Part shown: positions 1-7,018 of the stretch, in pieces
Position numbering within the stretch: the stretch's first letter is position 1
Layout of the letters: the number at the start of each line of letters is the position of its first letter
Source of the DNA: Alphaproteobacteria bacterium
GTDB lineage: Bacteria > Pseudomonadota > Alphaproteobacteria > CAAGCB01 > CAG-977
DNA length: 64,000 bases
Direction of reading: 5' to 3'
NCBI GenBank assembly: GCA_017539865.1
Contig: JAFYCE010000101.1
Span: 7,089-71,088, forward strand
Notes under the pieces: model-generated
The model's database searches: none
The model's input: only the letters and a program-made list of their open reading frames with translations
What the model was told of the DNA's origin: nothing
Translations under genes and position numbers: made by a program

Positions 1-87
1 CACTTTTTCCAAATTTATCAAAGACGGTTGTTTTTCTTTTTCATTCCAAATGAACTTTAATTTTCCGTTCTGATAGCCTTTATACAT
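1..87 (-). CDS. Hypothetical protein (N-terminal 29 codons only; gene runs off the window start). Probably phage/island-associated.
   Basis: The ATG at 87 overlaps the stop of the tail-fibre gene (TAATG). It reads MYKGYQNGKLKFIWNEKEKQPSLINLEKV to the window edge. Confidence 0.3.
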   Translation of the reverse strand, partial: MYKGYQNGKLKFIWNEKEKQPSLINLEKV

Positions 88-1748
88 TATTCTTCTCCTT
101 CTGCGTAGATAAATGAAACAACTGGTGTAGTTTGTCCGTAAGCGATTTGGACGCTTTCTCCCGCTTTTGCCGGAATATAAGCGGATATAGTTGAGCCTAA
201 CGTATAAGAATGATCGGAATCTTTGATAAAAGTTGAGAGGTTCTCAATATCCACAAAGGCAAAACTATTCACCTCAACTGTTCCGGAAATTGTAAAAAAT
301 CCGTTTGCTGGGGCGATGTAGGTTGCGAAAGAAGCACCTGTTACTACAATAAGCCTTTTGCTTCCGGGCATTCCCATTTTGGCCAGTTCAGAGGTTGGAT
401 ATGTATTGATTGTATCTATACTTCTGCTCGGCATCGAAACAATCGATCCTCCGCTGACAACGACTATTCCTAAGTCTGTGAAACCAATATCGGAAAAAAC
501 ATTAAAAGTGCTTTTCGTATTCAGCATCCCGTTCGCATCAACAACAAGATGAAGCGTATTATTTACTGCGACTGTCTGAACACCACTTGTTTCCCATATC
601 GTATTAGAACAAGTACCGTCCGAACTGATTGATTGTAAGGCCTGTCCTTTGATATGAGGCAAAACAAATACGGTTGAAGCAATACAACCGATTCCGTTGA
701 ATACTCGATCTATCTGAACATAAGACGAGCCCAAATAGGCAACTTGCGCGCATGGCAAATATACTTCGCCGACCGTTCCCAAATTATCGTTAAATCTTGT
801 TATCTTGGTGTTCGGATTATACCAAAGATACGGAGCCGCCGGTTCTGTTGTTTGGGAAAAGACATGTGTTAAATCCATTTCCCACAAATGACCCGTCTTT
901 GAAACAACCAGCAGTCCTTTTCCTTGAAATCCACCGTTTAAAGAAAGGTCTTGCTGAAGCCTCATATTGTTACCGTTCCCATCATAAACGACACTTCCTG
1001 CAGTTAGTTTTACAACTCCTGCCGTCAGAGAAATTTTTATGTTTTGTGGAACAGACAAAACACGGCTTGCTGTGTACGTTTTGTTAAATTCCGTCGTATC
1101 CATAATTTCCGCCCATCTTTTTGCGGAATGGATTCCATTGACAGACACGATTTCCTCATCCGTTCCTTCTGCCCAGATTCGGGCTTTATTGGCACTGCTG
1201 GAGGCTTGTGTTGCTTGATTTATCGCATCAGTAATAGCAGATATGTGAGTAGCCGCGGTATGAATAGAAGAAATATCGTCCGAAACTGTCGTCAACGATG
1301 AGATGTTTTGAGCCGCAACAACTATCTCGTCTTTGATACGGTAAAGTTTTTCAATTTTATCTACTAATACAGATGGATCAGAAGCTGAAAATAAGTCCAC
1401 CGTTACCGCCCGTTCCGCCTGCTCTTTCAGCTGTTGAATCTGCATTGTCAGCTTGTCGAAATTGCGTTCAAGCGTTTCAGCCGGCAAAACCTCGTTTTCC
1501 CGATAGTCCGTTTCCTGCGTCAACGGCACTTCGCGCATAATCACGATTTGCGCATCATCCGCCGGAGCCGTCGCAAAAACCATATTCCCGCCCGAAACCG
1601 TCCAATCCGTCCTTTCCGTCTGCACGTTGTTTAAAAGTTGTCTGACCTTTAAATGCTCCCTTTCCAAAAAAGGAAACGGGATTGCAAATGTTGTCGCAAC
1701 CCCGTTCCCGATATAAGCCACTTTGTTTGTTGTTGTACTTACCGTCAT
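87..1748 (-). CDS. Phage tail fibre-like protein.
   Basis: A 553-aa ORF with a GAGG RBS before the ATG. The N-terminal KVAYIGNGVATTFAIPFPF motif is typical of phage tail-fibre/tail-collar N-termini. There is a coiled-coil stretch followed by a Gly/Ser/Thr-rich beta-type C-terminal half. Confidence 0.5.
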   Translation of the reverse strand: MTVSTTTNKVAYIGNGVATTFAIPFPFLEREHLKVRQLLNNVQTERTDWTVSGGNMVFATAPADDAQIVIMREVPLTQETDYRENEVLPAETLERNFDKLTMQIQQLKEQAERAVTVDLFSASDPSVLVDKIEKLYRIKDEIVVAAQNISSLTTVSDDISSIHTAATHISAITDAINQATQASSSANKARIWAEGTDEEIVSVNGIHSAKRWAEIMDTTEFNKTYTASRVLSVPQNIKISLTAGVVKLTAGSVVYDGNGNNMRLQQDLSLNGGFQGKGLLVVSKTGHLWEMDLTHVFSQTTEPAAPYLWYNPNTKITRFNDNLGTVGEVYLPCAQVAYLGSSYVQIDRVFNGIGCIASTVFVLPHIKGQALQSISSDGTCSNTIWETSGVQTVAVNNTLHLVVDANGMLNTKSTFNVFSDIGFTDLGIVVVSGGSIVSMPSRSIDTINTYPTSELAKMGMPGSKRLIVVTGASFATYIAPANGFFTISGTVEVNSFAFVDIENLSTFIKDSDHSYTLGSTISAYIPAKAGESVQIAYGQTTPVVSFIYAEGEE

Positions 1749-3202: not shown

Positions 3203-3475
3203 CTATTCGGAGCCGTATTCTTTCTCTATATCGGATATTTTCGGGAGAATCTCTTTTTGAAAATAAGCATCAAAGGCTTGGTTCAAGAAATGTTTTTCCA
3301 TTGAATAGAAAAACTCTGCCAGTTGCTCGTTTCTTGCAAGTTCCTGCATCGTTTCCCGATATTTCTCCGCCACTTCCCCGCCGTGAATGAAACAAAATAA
3401 AGCGGTGGAAAACTCAACATCTTTGCGTTCTTCAAAGTCGGGTAAAAACTCCTCGATTAAATCCCAATACAACAT
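3203..3475 (-). CDS. Hypothetical protein (90 aa), coupled to the upstream gene.
   Basis: The ORF starts 3 nt after the stop of the 3479..3892 gene. No recognisable motif. Confidence 0.4.
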   Translation of the reverse strand: MLYWDLIEEFLPDFEERKDVEFSTALFCFIHGGEVAEKYRETMQELARNEQLAEFFYSMEKHFLNQAFDAYFQKEILPKISDIEKEYGSE

Positions 3476-3478
3476 TGT

Positions 3479-3892
3479 TCAATCCTCCCTGATGACCTGA
3501 CCGACAGGGCAAGGCGTAAAAAATAAATCCAATTCCGCAAGCTCCAAAAGTTCGTCAACGGAGATGTATCCGGCCTCGAAACCATATCCGAAACTCGCCC
3601 AACCGAACGCCTGAATTTGCTTTTCGGCGGTGTCTTTTTCGACGATGTAGCCGTCATAGGAACCGACAAAATAGTGCAGTTGAGCCAAAGCGTTTTTGCC
3701 TTGTCCGTCCGTTTCATAGACTTGCGGCATCGTTTTGATTCGCTCGGCAAGGTTCAGGATAATGTCCGCGAACGCTCCGGCTTCCTCGGAATGATACAGA
3801 TTGTCGATAAGGGTTTGAGCCTGCCGAACCGGCATAAACGGTTTAAGGGTCGTTTTCATTTCGTTTAAGGCTTGGTCGAATTTATCGGTCAT
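3479..3892 (-). CDS. Conserved MGE leading-region protein of unknown function (possibly DUF2958-like).
   Basis: 137 aa with a GGAG RBS. Motifs LHYFVGSYDGYIVEKD and AFGWASFGYGFEAGYISVDEL recall a small family found beside ardC on plasmids/ICEs. It shares promoter, leader and the first 6 codons (MTDKFD) with ardC at 6058. Confidence 0.4.
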   Translation of the reverse strand: MTDKFDQALNEMKTTLKPFMPVRQAQTLIDNLYHSEEAGAFADIILNLAERIKTMPQVYETDGQGKNALAQLHYFVGSYDGYIVEKDTAEKQIQAFGWASFGYGFEAGYISVDELLELAELDLFFTPCPVGQVIRED

Positions 3893-4098
3893 TGTCTTGC
3901 TCCTTCTCTGTAAAAAGCACTTGGTTAAAGGGTTTTAGGCATCGCGCCTGAAACCCTTTCGAGGTGCTTCGTCGGAGAGAAGAAAGCGATTGTCATATTC
4001 CAAGAAAAACGGAGGGGTATCGCCCGTCTTGCAGCATTGCGAAAGTCGGGGAAACCGTTTTTCTTCCGTCAGGCGGAGGGAATTGACAATCAAGAAAA
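3875..4098. repeat. Copy A of a ~200-230 bp direct repeat (promoter/leader cassette); about 90% identical to copy B.
   Basis: Aligned by eye to 6041..6271. It contains the start codon plus 6 codons and RBS of the minus-strand gene, a 14-bp-stem hairpin at 3927..3959, and on the + strand a TTGACA box at 4086. Confidence 0.8.
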
Positions 4099-4143
4099 TT
4101 TATTGTCCACTTACTTAAGAAAAATACTGTTAAGGAAAAATCT

Positions 4144-4896
4144 ATGACAAAAATTCATTTTGTAAAAAAGCAAAGCGACATCATAAGAAATATAGAAAAA
4201 CTGTATGAGTATCTTGCTTCTTCCGATAAAACTTTATCTGATTTTGCTTTTAATCTTATGAAGCGAGGGCGAGCCTATGTCGCTTATTATGACGATAATT
4301 GTGATAAATGGCTTTTAGCTCCTAGTAGATTTGTCGGATACAAGAACAATGATTACAAAAAACATAAAATGAATGATGAAAAAGATGGAACAAGAACCTC
4401 TAAAAAAATAGACGAGATTTTAAAATGCGGATACAAAACTAACAAAAAATTAGAATCTCTTTTAAAAACGATTTTTGAAGTTCCTTCTTATAAAGAAGCT
4501 AAACTCCATTTTTGGATTTTAGGAGATGACAGAAAGCTTGATAAACAAACAATGGAAGAACAAGCTCAAAAATATATAGAACAAAAGAAATTAAAAGAGC
4601 ATATATTTTATGAAGGTCGTATTTCTGGAAAAATACGTAAAAAAATAATTGAACAATTAGGAACAACATGCGAAGCCTGTGGCAGAAAAATGGAAGAAAT
4701 ATATGGTGAAATAGGCAGAGGATATATAGAATTACATCATTTAAAACCTTTCTGTAATTTGGATATTGGAAAAGAAAGGGTAGTAACTCCTTCTGATTTT
4801 GCTGTTTTATGCCCGAACTGTCATAAAATGATTCATAAAACAAACGAAACAAGTGATATTAAAAAATTCAAAAAAAGAATAAAAAAATCCGTTTAA
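4144..4896 (+). CDS. McrA-like HNH endonuclease (putative modification-dependent or other restriction/defence nuclease).
   Basis: 250 aa with an AAGGA RBS. The C-terminal CEACG...IELHHLKP...LCPNCHKMIH matches the McrA-type HNH/zinc-finger pattern (CxxC..HH..N..CPNCH..H). The N-terminal 170 aa are unrecognised. The gene sits in a sharply AT-rich island (about 4100-4900). Confidence 0.6.
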   Translation: MTKIHFVKKQSDIIRNIEKLYEYLASSDKTLSDFAFNLMKRGRAYVAYYDDNCDKWLLAPSRFVGYKNNDYKKHKMNDEKDGTRTSKKIDEILKCGYKTNKKLESLLKTIFEVPSYKEAKLHFWILGDDRKLDKQTMEEQAQKYIEQKKLKEHIFYEGRISGKIRKKIIEQLGTTCEACGRKMEEIYGEIGRGYIELHHLKPFCNLDIGKERVVTPSDFAVLCPNCHKMIHKTNETSDIKKFKKRIKKSV

Positions 4897-4994
4897 ACGT
4901 AAAAGAAATTCTTTTTTCGGGCGGATTGCGAAGCAATCGGGCATGGCATCGGGCGAAAAACGGGGCAGATACAGAATCGTATCCGCCTGAATTT

Positions 4995-5159
4995 TTAGAA
5001 GTAATATGTCGTTTTTTCCAAGTCGTCGCGCTTATATCCCTGCGCGATCAGTTCGTAAAATTTGGACAGTTGTGCGGCTTTGCTGTGAAAGTCGAAATGT
5101 TCTTTTTCGTATCCGTCCGCGCCGTAAATCGTCAGTCTGAAAAAAGCAATCTTCATTGT
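4995..5159 (-). CDS. Small hypothetical protein (54 aa) downstream of ardC.
   Basis: Strong RBS AGGAGGAAGAACA-ATG. Reads MKIAFFRLTIYGADGYEKEHFDFHSKAAQLSKFYELIAQGYKRDDLEKTTYYF. Confidence 0.4.
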   Translation of the reverse strand, partial: TMKIAFFRLTIYGADGYEKEHFDFHSKAAQLSKFYELIAQGYKRDDLEKTTYYF

Positions 5160-5185
5160 TCTTCCTCCTCTTTTGAGGGAAGCGG

Positions 5186-6058
5186 TCAAGCCGCTTCCCG
5201 TCCGATTTCCTGGAATGTCAGCAGATAGTCAAAAGCCTTTTGCGCTTCGGAGCAGGCTTTGAAAATCGCCTTTTTGTCGTTCTTCAAAACCTTGAGCCAA
5301 GATTTCAAGTAAGCAAGGTTGTTTTTGCTGAATTGATAGTCATAACCCAAATATCCGGCGACAAATCCCGCGCCGATGTCGGCGATCAGTTCCTCAAAGG
5401 CGTAGGATTCATTTCCGAAACGGCCTTTCATATCCCGGTTTAAGCGGTTCTTGTGTCCGGTCGCGTGGATTGTTTCGTGCGCCAAAGTCGAAACGAAGCC
5501 GGTTTCCGTTTTGAAGTCTTTTCTTTCCGGCATTAAGACAACATTGTTTTTCGGGTCGTAGCCTGCCAAAGTCGCGCCGTAAAAATAAGAGATGTCCGTG
5601 TTTTCAAAAAACGCCATCACGTCCTTTTCAACGCTAAATTCGGCTTTTTCGATGTCTTCGCCGAATCCCTCGACTTGCGAACCGTTAAACACGGAATAAG
5701 CGCGGGCGACAAAAGCCTGGTTTTCGACTTCTTCGATGTCGCCGGTTTCGGTGTTTTCGACTTCGCATTTATAGGAAAGAGGTTTCCAGAAAACGATGGT
5801 CGTCGCCTTTGAGTCTTTCTTGACCTGATAGCCTTTATCCTGCCATTGGCGATAAGTTCCCCAAACGGACGAGGAAAAACCGTTGAACAAAGCGGCAAAG
5901 TTCAAAATCAGAATGTTGATGCCGCGATAAGCCTTTTTTGTCGTGATGTTCCGGGCAAAAGAGGAAATAAACGGCTTTTCCCATTCGCCGGAAAAGTTTT
6001 CCAAATGTTCGATGATGGTGTTTGAAACGGTTTCGATGATGTCGAATTTATCAGTCAT
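5186..6058 (-). CDS. ardC: Anti-restriction protein ArdC (ssDNA-binding N-terminal domain plus C-terminal HExxH metalloprotease-like domain).
   Basis: Start re-set to MTDKFD (ATG at 6058, RBS GGAG). Motifs YRGINILIL and HETIHATGH are characteristic of ArdC/DUF1738. The ORF-track start at 6262 lies inside the repeat/leader. Confidence 0.7.
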   Translation of the reverse strand: MTDKFDIIETVSNTIIEHLENFSGEWEKPFISSFARNITTKKAYRGINILILNFAALFNGFSSSVWGTYRQWQDKGYQVKKDSKATTIVFWKPLSYKCEVENTETGDIEEVENQAFVARAYSVFNGSQVEGFGEDIEKAEFSVEKDVMAFFENTDISYFYGATLAGYDPKNNVVLMPERKDFKTETGFVSTLAHETIHATGHKNRLNRDMKGRFGNESYAFEELIADIGAGFVAGYLGYDYQFSKNNLAYLKSWLKVLKNDKKAIFKACSEAQKAFDYLLTFQEIGREAA

Positions 6059-6271
6059 TTTGAAAGCTCCTTCTCTGTAAAAAGCACTTGTTAAAGGGTT
6101 TTTGGCATCGCGCCTGAAACCCTTTCGAGGTGCTTCGTCGGAGAGAAGAAAGCGATTGTCATATTCCAAGAAAAACGGAGGGGTATCACCCATCTTGCAA
6201 CGACACCGGAGCGAAAGTCGGGGAAACCGTTTTTCTTCCGTTAGGCGGCAGGGAATTGACAATCAAGAAAA
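6041..6271. repeat. Copy B of the promoter/leader cassette repeat.
   Basis: See copy A. Hairpin at 6093..6125 and a TTGACA at 6256. On the minus strand it is upstream of ardC; on the + strand it is upstream of the HU gene. Confidence 0.8.
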
Positions 6272-6338
6272 GGCTTTGCTTAAACCTTGAAAAAAGGATA
6301 ATCTGTGCTTCTGTTTATATTTGAAATGGAGTTGCATT

Positions 6339-6611
6339 ATGAACAAAGCAGAATTAGTGGCTGAAATCGCGAAGAACACCGGTTTGACGAAAGTTGATTC
6401 CGAACGGGCGACGGAAGCCTTGTTGAATACGGTTGCCGCGACCTTGAAGAAAGGCGATGAAGTTCGTTTGGTCGGCTTTGGCACGTTCAGCGTGACGAAA
6501 CGTCCAGCTTCGACCGGTCGCAATCCGCGCACGGGTGCGGAAATCAAGATTCCGGCTTCCAAACAGCCGAAATTCAAAGCCGGTAAAGGTCTGAAAGACG
6601 CTTTGAACTAA
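6339..6611 (+). CDS. hupB: DNA-binding protein HU.
   Basis: MNKAELVAEIA...GFGTFSVTKRPASTGRNPRTGAEIKIPA is the classic HU/IHF-family fold sequence. It is followed by a strong terminator. Confidence 0.9.
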   Translation: MNKAELVAEIAKNTGLTKVDSERATEALLNTVAATLKKGDEVRLVGFGTFSVTKRPASTGRNPRTGAEIKIPASKQPKFKAGKGLKDALN

Positions 6612-6631
6612 TAACCGGTTCAAAAACAGAT

Positions 6632-6666
6632 AAAGGCGTGTCCGTTCGGACGCGCCTTTTCTTTAT
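6632..6666 (+). terminator. Rho-independent terminator of the HU gene.
   Basis: GGCGTGTCCG-ttc-GGACGCGCC followed by TTTTCTTT. Confidence 0.7.
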
Positions 6667-6849
6667 ACCTGAAACGAGATTTCCGAGTTTTCCATTAAAT
6701 TTCCCAATAAGAAAAACAAGAAAAAGATAGTGTTTCCAAAGATTCGTTTGTTTTTGATTCCCTATTTTCCCAAATTCCGTTTTTCCGGGAGAACGAAAGA
6801 TGTGATTCGCATCAAATTTTTCTATTATTTTTTTGAGAAAAACAAAAAC

Positions 6850-6941: not shown

Positions 6942-7018
6942 TGGTGATCTCGCCGCGATTCGAACGCGGGACCCACAGCTTAGAAGGCTGTTGCTCTATC
7001 CAGCTGAGCTACGAGACC
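6942..7018 (-). tRNA. argU: tRNA-Arg (anticodon UCU), argU-like.
   Basis: A 77-nt cloverleaf folded by hand: acceptor GGTCTCG/CGAGATC, D arm GCTC-AGCTGGATA-GAGC, anticodon arm ACAGC-CTTCTAA-GCTGT, T arm CCGCG-TTCGAAT-CGCGG, discriminator A plus CCA. The anticodon arm closely matches E. coli argU. Confidence 0.85.

Follow-up and report, generated by a model that had tools for sequence, protein, structure and literature searches.

The 64,000-nucleotide stretch of alphaproteobacterial DNA analysed here (contig JAFYCE010000101.1; the whole stretch is referred to below as the window) carries, near its left end, a complete gene for a 250-residue protein in which an N-terminal domain without a description in the family libraries is followed by a predicted McrA-type HNH nuclease module. 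The gene is the sole long open reading frame (ORF) of an AT-rich interval flagged in a first-pass annotation, which had been made from the sequence and had proposed a Type IV-like, modification-dependent nuclease whose N-terminal domain might be a new reader of modified DNA. Support for this proposal is provided by the fusion of the same domain to other nucleases, by its occurrence at the N-terminus of McrB proteins, and by the position of the gene in a slot that holds defence systems in sister elements. The gene, its two parts and its immediate flanks are listed here.

4144-4896, + strand: two-domain nuclease gene, complete from ATG to TAA, 250 amino acids
4144-4524, + strand: N-terminal domain, residues 1-127, of a family without a library description
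4537-4896, + strand: predicted McrA-type HNH module, residues 132-250, two leading helices followed by a Cys4 zinc site and the catalytic His
4096-4143, + strand: 5' region that moves with the gene, holding a ribosome-binding site and a probable promoter, and starting where the window diverges from an empty-site sister locus (L009)
4897-4990, no strand assigned: 3' flank of the cassette, containing a terminator-like hairpin (4964-4987); the flank is shared with a related locus (L001) up to ~4960, and homology to L009 is back at ~4985

A ribosome-binding site (AAGGA) lies 9 nt 5' of the ATG, and a hand estimate from base composition puts the chance of a 250-codon open frame at 29% GC (guanine plus cytosine) at (1-0.08)^250, or ~1e-9. 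Full-length homologues of 250-264 residues were found at 98, 87 and 65% identity, and the ratio of nonsynonymous to synonymous substitution rates (dN/dS) relative to the 87% homologue is 0.26, the two halves of the protein being alike in this respect. These data show a real and intact gene that is subject to purifying selection, and the possibility, raised in the first-pass annotation, that it is a fragment of a larger, disrupted gene is ruled out by the same two observations. The encoded protein is basic, with a pI of 9.4. GC content is 29.0% for the gene (0.20 at third codon positions) and 29.9% for the island at 4096-4960, as compared to 48.8% for the window; when GC was computed in 800-bp segments over the 64 kb (mean 0.488, standard deviation 0.045), the minimum fell at 4101 (0.289, ~4.4 standard deviations below the mean), so that the gene and its flanks are indeed the most AT-rich part of the window, as had been remarked.

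The ~50 nt 5' of the gene are conserved with L001 and with a chromosomal copy of the gene in L005, and the divergence between the window and L009 begins directly after ...GGGAATTGACAATCAAGA. A cassette of ~0.87 kb and 29% GC evidently arrived at this position by horizontal transfer. The hairpin at 4964-4987 could terminate both the nuclease gene and the converging transcript of an ArdC-like gene and a 64-residue ORF described below. In a side observation, a homologue of 240 residues (P0004) is ~77% identical to the protein over most of its length and diverges wholly after ...MEEIYGE; it looks like a frameshifted, catalytically dead copy.

The N-terminal domain

The first-pass annotation had described an unassignable domain of 170 residues. 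We also find no library match, but the domain is shorter, at ~127 residues, and the helices of residues 132-170 belong to the nuclease module because the alignment to E. coli McrA already starts at residue 132. The domain carries the signature FAPSRFVGY..N....H..N..KDGR.TN together with a C-terminal (K/R)(Y/F)W, and G42, P60 and N69 are invariant in an alignment of 75 stand-alone members of its family. A set of 1.84 billion representative proteins was searched with a profile made from the window protein (residues 1-133) together with four homologues, which gave 759 clusters (50% identity) at E ≤ 1e-3, 516 at E ≤ 1e-10 and three at E ≤ 1e-30. The AlphaFold2 model of the domain, computed with the 75-sequence alignment, has a predicted local distance difference test (pLDDT) score of 93.4 and a predicted template modelling (pTM) score of 0.87, and its topology consists of two long helices, a beta hairpin, four shorter helices and one closing strand. 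On the strength of this model, the N-terminal 127 residues are predicted to be an autonomous, confidently folding domain. A full-length AlphaFold2 model based on six close homologues has a pLDDT of 46 and is unusable, and we place trust in the model of the N-terminal domain alone.

Pfam has no family that covers the domain in 68 multi-domain members, and searching the 75 stand-alone members at E ≤ 1 returned scattered single matches only. The EVE, PUA, SRA, ASCH and winged-helix families of Pfam gave no match to the domain in either set, and no Pfam match was obtained to any homing-endonuclease or transposon family; it is such a match that the first-pass annotation had named as refuting its proposal. 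With NCBIfam, the only matches of the stand-alone members at E ≤ 0.01 were to type II secretion system/type IV pilus (T2SS/T4P) ATPase models, one member each. Moreover, the domain is without a match in PHROGs or PADLOC and is absent from 50,697 phage records. Its profile matched no PDB sequence (best E 0.91), and the structure search that had been suggested as a check gave no known fold when the model was compared by Foldseek with 350,542 PDB chains (best E 1.1) and with BFVD (best E 0.79).

A search of the literature found no paper describing the domain. In the source databases, members of the family appear as 'hypothetical protein', 'HNH endonuclease' or 'predicted HNH restriction endonuclease', and the databases name the family only by its nuclease part. 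Some JGI entries of the family are labelled '5-methylcytosine-specific restriction protein A'. Two stand-alone copies of the domain with 122-132 residues and no HNH (P0148 and P0276) still carry this JGI label, which suggests that the orthology profile behind the mcrA label includes proteins with the N-terminal domain. The label is no evidence of specificity.

Fusion partners and stand-alone copies

Among the 68 multi-domain members, the partners assigned by Pfam are HNH (22 of 68) and HNH_2 (19 of 68), followed by HEPN_Swt1, NOV_C and McrB-type AAA_5, with two members each, and by MUG113 and T5orf172, with one each. Matches to nSTAND3, ABC-3C CTD5, IstB and PhoH were rejected as evidence of additional partners, being weak and lying over P-loop or HNH regions. 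The domain stands at the N-terminus of an McrB-like GTPase in four proteins (P0139, P0145, and ORFs in loci L039 and L040). P0145 is followed in three loci by an McrC gene (PF10117) with a 4-nt overlap, and the McrB fusion of L040 is likewise followed by McrC (E = 1.7e-26). In canonical McrB the N-terminus bears a small, modular DNA-binding specificity domain (PMC11090510). Between the N-terminal domain and the GTPase, two of these fusions have a Pfam-blank region of 200-550 residues (residues ~130-320 of P0145 and ~130-690 of P0139), and this region may add a second specificity module. In P0025, P0075 and L043 (3971-5236), HNH_2 is preceded by two copies of the domain in tandem, the second of which is far more divergent.

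A like repertoire of fusions is shown by known readers such as EVE, SRA and winged-helix domains (PMC7897488, PMC6765204, PMC11037411). Because the fusion repertoire matches that of known readers, we propose that the N-terminal domain targets nucleic acid; this is our main argument for its role, and it is one of architecture only. The domain also occurs as a stand-alone protein. Of three such copies on long contigs, one lies between integrases and resolvases (L025), one adjoins GmrSD_N genes and Fic (L026-L028), and one is carried on a ParA/Rep3/DnaB plasmid (L029-L031).

The C-terminal nuclease module

The residues of the HNH motif are present in the C-terminal module as C176-x2-C179, H197-H198, C222-x2-C225-H226 and H230. 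The alignment to E. coli McrA (PDB 6ghc) pairs residues 132-238 with McrA residues 175-273 at E = 4.3e-6 and takes in the CxxC...CxxC zinc site, the H197/H198 pair and the CPNCH..H segment. PADLOC, a search also suggested in the first-pass annotation, matched mREase_IV (1.2e-7) over residues 139-238, and the C-terminus is also matched by PHROG HNH families. By its sequence the module is an McrA-type Cys4-zinc HNH nuclease, as had been concluded earlier from motifs that we find in place.

The closest HNH modules elsewhere, in P0005, P0007-P0011 and P0013-P0016, are 44-49% identical over the last 100-120 residues, and the alignments include the YEGRIS...IYG.IG..YIELHH stretch. The N-termini of these proteins differ, and those that were inspected have hydrophobic, transmembrane-like stretches, so that they would be membrane-anchored HNH proteins.

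The mobile element and its cargo slot

The genes and other features surrounding the nuclease gene are the following.

5186-6058, - strand: ArdC-like anti-restriction gene, 290 amino acids from the MTDKFD start; Pfam ArdcN (1.2e-31) and MPTase-PolyVal (zincin; 2.1e-37)
4995-5189, - strand: 64-residue ORF 3' of ArdC, forming the right edge of the slot; 93-97% identity in L009, L011 and L012
3479-3892, - strand: 137-residue leading-region gene of unknown function, PHROG 5203 (E = 1e-18); the anchor by which sister elements are recognised
3875-4095, - strand: leader copy A, ~210 nt, preceding the 137-residue gene and forming the left edge of the slot
6041-6262, - strand: leader copy B, preceding ArdC and 97% identical to copy A
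6942-7018, - strand: tRNA-Arg(TCT), found with ARAGORN and Rfam; chromosomal genes lie to its right

ArdC, the 64-, 137- and 90-residue ORFs, MobC_2 and a MobA/VirD2 relaxase are co-directional on the - strand, opposite to the nuclease gene. HU and tRNA-Arg(TCT) lie on the right, an autotransporter gene is a further neighbour, and the tRNA gene is the probable integration site of a mobile element. From its gene content the setting is predicted to be a mobilizable element of small size that has integrated at a tRNA gene, and the relaxase, the MobC_2 neighbour and the tRNA-Arg integration bear out the earlier statement that the nuclease is carried by a mobile element. The 64-residue ORF has no family match in Pfam or PHROG, and a megablast search of 3400-6700 against plasmids returned nothing. 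Relatives of the 137-residue gene place the element in uncultured gut Alphaproteobacteria: the gene is found in 13 syntenic loci in gut alphaproteobacterial metagenome-assembled genomes, and its product is 76-97% identical in 12 such loci. One of these 12 loci is filed under Limosilactobacillus gorillae, probably through a binning error. The 137-residue gene is itself a candidate anti-defence or establishment gene. Near the left end of the window, a 553-residue ORF at 87-1748 (- strand), directly 3' of the relaxase, has a weak match to a T7 tail-fibre N-terminal domain (23.6 bits, below the cut-off); this match is odd for a mobilizable element, and a phage- or satellite-like region may continue past the left end of the window.

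No methyltransferase gene lies within ~10 kb of the nuclease gene, in agreement with its earlier description as a solo gene, and none was found in seven homologue contexts. A remnant of a Type II restriction-modification system is ruled out by the lack of a methyltransferase nearby. The first-pass annotation had also stressed the proximity of ArdC, which is indeed the next large gene. A functional partnership, however, does not hold, because the nuclease gene lies on the opposite strand and in a cargo slot; membership of an ArdC operon is ruled out by the opposite strand, by the gene's own 5' region and by a homologue that occurs without ArdC.

The leader includes a ribosome-binding site and the first six codons (MTDKFD), and it is present twice per locus in several sister elements. 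As single-stranded DNA it forms two long hairpins (z = -7.0 and -6.9, either strand), one stem being TTGATTGTCAATTCC paired with GGAATATGACAATCG. No match for the leader was found in Rfam, and it may be a single-strand promoter of the Frpo/ssi kind belonging to a conjugative leading region. Only ArdC and the 137-residue gene are preceded by leader copies; the nuclease gene has none. Leading-region anti-defence genes are reported only on the transferred strand (T-strand) behind Frpo-type promoters (PMC11541004).

The 13 syntenic loci are conserved up to the start of the leader at TCTTGATTGTCAATTCCC and are wholly different just beyond it. We define the slot as the stretch between the TCTTGATTGTCAATTCCC junction and the unit formed by ArdC and the 64-residue ORF, which corresponds to 4096-4990 of the window; the sister loci are L009-L020. 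Slot contents identified in these loci are as follows.

L009: no ORF of at least 60 residues; 725 bp, 47% GC
L010: end of a BREX operon (BrxL)
L011: Shedu SduA and Gabija GajA/GajB
L012: GmrSD_N protein with a 255-residue partner
L015: SWIM protein
L016: 311-residue protein, unknown
L017: UvrD-like helicase, 923 residues
L018: PDC-S60
L019: PDC-S01

Most of the cargo is AT-rich, with 27-34% GC, and the unidentified cargoes are candidate new defence genes. The slot of L009 contains ~500 bp (5277-5792; 41-47% GC) that have no ORF of at least 60 residues and are dissimilar to the nuclease cassette. Because L009 keeps this unrelated sequence, turnover of the slot looks like replacement rather than plain insertion or excision.

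In L001 the 87% homologue occupies the same slot, and the cassette from ~4096 to ~4960 is common to this locus and the window. The 65% homologue, seen in L005-L008, lies 165 bp from tRNA-Arg(TCT) (L005 8960-9036, - strand) and next to fliP in a chromosome of 55% GC; the rest of the element is absent, and the 29.6% GC and the ~50-nt 5' region are kept. This chromosomal copy may be the remnant of an element or an independent insertion at the same attachment (att) site. More distant genes that join the N-terminal domain to HNH were found at a resolvase/Mob border, near an EVE protein, in a variable island of Pseudomonas luteola, and on plasmids, where they are annotated 'HNH endonuclease'. On the Acinetobacter sp. 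PK01 plasmid NZ_CP094644.1 (L038, 3729-4550), such a gene is lined up with xseA and xseB, with genes for SOS-response-associated and S24 peptidases, and with a gene for a Y-family polymerase. These neighbours point to DNA damage, which sets the locus apart from all the others that were inspected.

Discussion

Taken together, the domain architecture and the genomic setting lead us to conclude that the product of the gene is probably a solo, Type IV-like defence nuclease that needs no methyltransferase and whose reader position is filled by an uncharacterised domain; the gene is carried as cargo by a mobile element. In the mechanism that we favour, the N-terminal domain would bind nucleic acid, most probably by recognising a mark that is absent from host DNA, such as a modified base or backbone, and this binding would bring the HNH module to incoming phage or rival-element DNA. 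The nuclease would then nick or cut nearby, probably as a dimer as in McrA-type enzymes. Host DNA would be spared because the mark is absent from it, and no protecting methyltransferase would be needed. Expression would occur only after the element has become established, as expected of a defence gene and not of an early anti-defence gene, because the gene lies on the strand opposite to ArdC and the 137-residue gene and lacks the structured leader. Both the DNA binding and the modification dependence of the domain are properties that we infer.

A bolder proposal, which we advance tentatively and towards which we do not lean, is that the domain founds a new fold of modification reader, plugged into HNH, HNH_2, HEPN, NOV_C and McrBC and used alone as well, that recognises a DNA or RNA mark outside those read by the SRA, EVE/YTH, NEco, ADAM/DUF3578, winged-helix, SBD and iEndoIII domains. 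Were this so, stand-alone copies carried by plasmids could bind the same mark and serve as shields or regulators.

Several observations weigh against the assignment as a Type IV-like nuclease. The PADLOC mREase_IV match (PDLC03656) covers model positions 174-263 of 277, which are the nuclease part only; the Pfam HNH score of 20.3 bits is slightly below the cut-off of 21.4; and the Asn position of the HNH motif is occupied by Asp (D216), as it is in the distant homologues P0006 and P0019. In P0004, moreover, the His-His and CPNCH motifs are missing, so that the catalytic motif has been lost. Two slot cargoes, the SWIM protein of L015 and the 311-residue protein of L016, have no recognised defence role. 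As to the N-terminal domain, proteins consisting of the domain alone, at 115-145 residues, make up 74 of the 148 best representatives, and no adjacent nuclease was seen at three stand-alone loci on long contigs, all of them mobile DNA. Because these copies are real genes on mobile DNA without an adjacent nuclease, the domain probably also functions by itself. In addition, fusions to HEPN RNases leave RNA possible as the ligand, and we infer the role of the domain from architecture and genomic position alone, as it has no detectable fold relative.

The stand-alone copies on mobile elements, together with the fusion of the domain to several effector nucleases (including HEPN_Swt1) and its lack of a fold relative among known DNA readers, would also suit a toxic abortive-infection or conflict effector, in which the domain senses a phage protein or serves as a homotypic adaptor and the HNH module degrades DNA indiscriminately once triggered. 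We nevertheless regard such an effector as unlikely: no second gene with the domain lies near the nuclease gene or its homologues, the domain is basic, and its N-terminal fusion to McrB followed by McrC places it in the classical position of DNA specificity. Its tandem duplication before the nuclease points the same way, since readers of symmetric sites typically have this arrangement. A second alternative is that of a selfish, free-standing cassette of the homing type, the N-terminal domain being a sequence-specific binder that aims the nuclease at empty sites so that the cassette spreads by repair-mediated copying. In favour of this, the cassette is a compact unit of ~0.87 kb with its own 5' region, and its GC content stays at ~29% although that of its hosts is 44-55%. 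The settings in which it occurs are unrelated, being the slot of the mobile element for the window and L001 and, for L005-L008, a chromosomal position directly next to tRNA-Arg(TCT); in addition, the C-terminus of the protein is matched by PHROG HNH families. Homing is, however, quite unlikely, in that the domain is absent from the phage records, Pfam detected none of the DNA-binding modules of homing enzymes (NUMOD, IENR1, AP2), the HNH module belongs to the McrA Cys4 type, and McrB with McrC, as well as HEPN, are partners from non-homing contexts. Moreover, the many unrelated cargoes at one fixed junction imply recombination at the leader rather than a target specific to the nuclease, and the 'empty site' of L009 does not correspond to a clean removal of the cassette.

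The location of the gene between two leading-region units that start with the same structured leader, one of them being ArdC, raises the question of whether it assists establishment or competition, by attacking the DNA of the host or of a rival element on entry or by acting with ArdC. This is very unlikely, given that the gene is on the strand opposite to ArdC and the 137-residue gene and has no leader, whereas the T-strand orientation is the only one reported for anti-defence genes of leading regions (PMC11541004); the slot of sister elements, moreover, holds bona fide defence systems, and the 65% copy persists without the element. Finally, the Acinetobacter plasmid locus, with xseAB, the SOS-response-associated and S24 peptidases and the Y-family polymerase, would suit a repair or recombination nuclease that recognises DNA lesions or structure and has no part in immunity. 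This explanation is highly improbable, as L038 is the sole context of its kind; elsewhere the genes lie in variable islands or at the borders of mobile elements, the copy in the window lies in a defence slot, and the McrBC fusions argue for restriction.

Modification-dependent nucleases are both defence systems and tools for epigenetic mapping, and each new reader has opened a new specificity. What is already known in the present case is the architecture, a reader joined to HNH, and a type of system that is expected on mobile elements. What is new is a large, delimited and, by its model, confidently folded family of N-terminal domains that is without an entry in the searched libraries or a detected structural relative and that stands in the reader position. 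The slot, in turn, is usable as bait when uncultured gut Alphaproteobacteria are searched for more defence genes. If the N-terminal domain were an ordinary sequence-specific DNA binder, the finding would shrink to one more HNH nuclease of a mobile element.

Comparison with known systems

The closest parallel to the putative solo Type IV-like nuclease is EcoKMcrA, a Type IV enzyme dependent on 5-methylcytosine or 5-hydroxymethylcytosine, in which an N-terminal specificity domain likewise precedes a C-terminal Cys4-zinc HNH module including its leading helices. Both are solo genes with no methyltransferase, and both are on mobile elements, E. coli McrA being carried on the e14 prophage. The N-terminal domain of the window protein is, however, unrelated to NEco: nothing aligns before residue 132, and the Foldseek comparison with the PDB, whose sequence set includes 6ghc, gave no match. 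In addition, Asp stands in place of the HNH Asn. As judged from the alignment, the absence of NEco keeps the protein out of the EcoKMcrA family in the strict sense.

A second group consists of the reader-HNH enzymes, which include EVE-HNH (VcaM4I), SRA-HNH (TagI/ScoMcrA), PUA-wH-HNH (HhiV4I) and winged-helix-HNH (wH-HNH) proteins, and which share with the window protein a small reader N-terminal to HNH. Reader-nuclease fusions of the EVE-HNH and SRA-HNH type have been described (PMC7897488, PMC6765204). The overall size is similar to that of the wH-HNH proteins (224-283 residues; PMC11037411), and methyltransferase genes are rare near the reader-HNH enzymes (PMC11037411). In contrast to readers of the PUA superfamily (EVE, SRA, ASCH, YTH), the model of the N-terminal domain is mainly helical, with three strands and no PUA-like barrel. 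CMoRE, in which a GIY-YIG nuclease has a C-terminal sensor (PMC12923530), and the END nucleases, in which the sensor is an inactive EndoIII (PMC12191111), were rejected as equivalents.

With McrBC the likeness lies in the presence of the same N-terminal domain on McrB-type AAA_5 GTPases, at a position that is held by DUF3578/ADAM or EVE in known McrB proteins (PMC11090510). The window protein differs in having neither an NTPase nor an McrC partner, its N-terminal domain being joined directly to HNH. Type IV enzymes are defined as a specificity domain plus a nuclease (PMC11090510), and the window protein has a separate candidate specificity domain and a predicted nuclease, with no cognate methyltransferase found.

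Unlike the anti-defence genes of leading regions, the nuclease gene is not oriented with the T-strand and has no leader resembling a promoter for single-stranded DNA. Its slot lies within what is presumed to be the leading region of a small mobilizable element at a tRNA gene, in which respect it differs from known defence hotspots. It resembles such hotspots and the anti-defence islands of leading regions in that its position is fixed, its junctions are sharp, and its flanks hold ArdC and the repeated structured leaders (PMC11541004).

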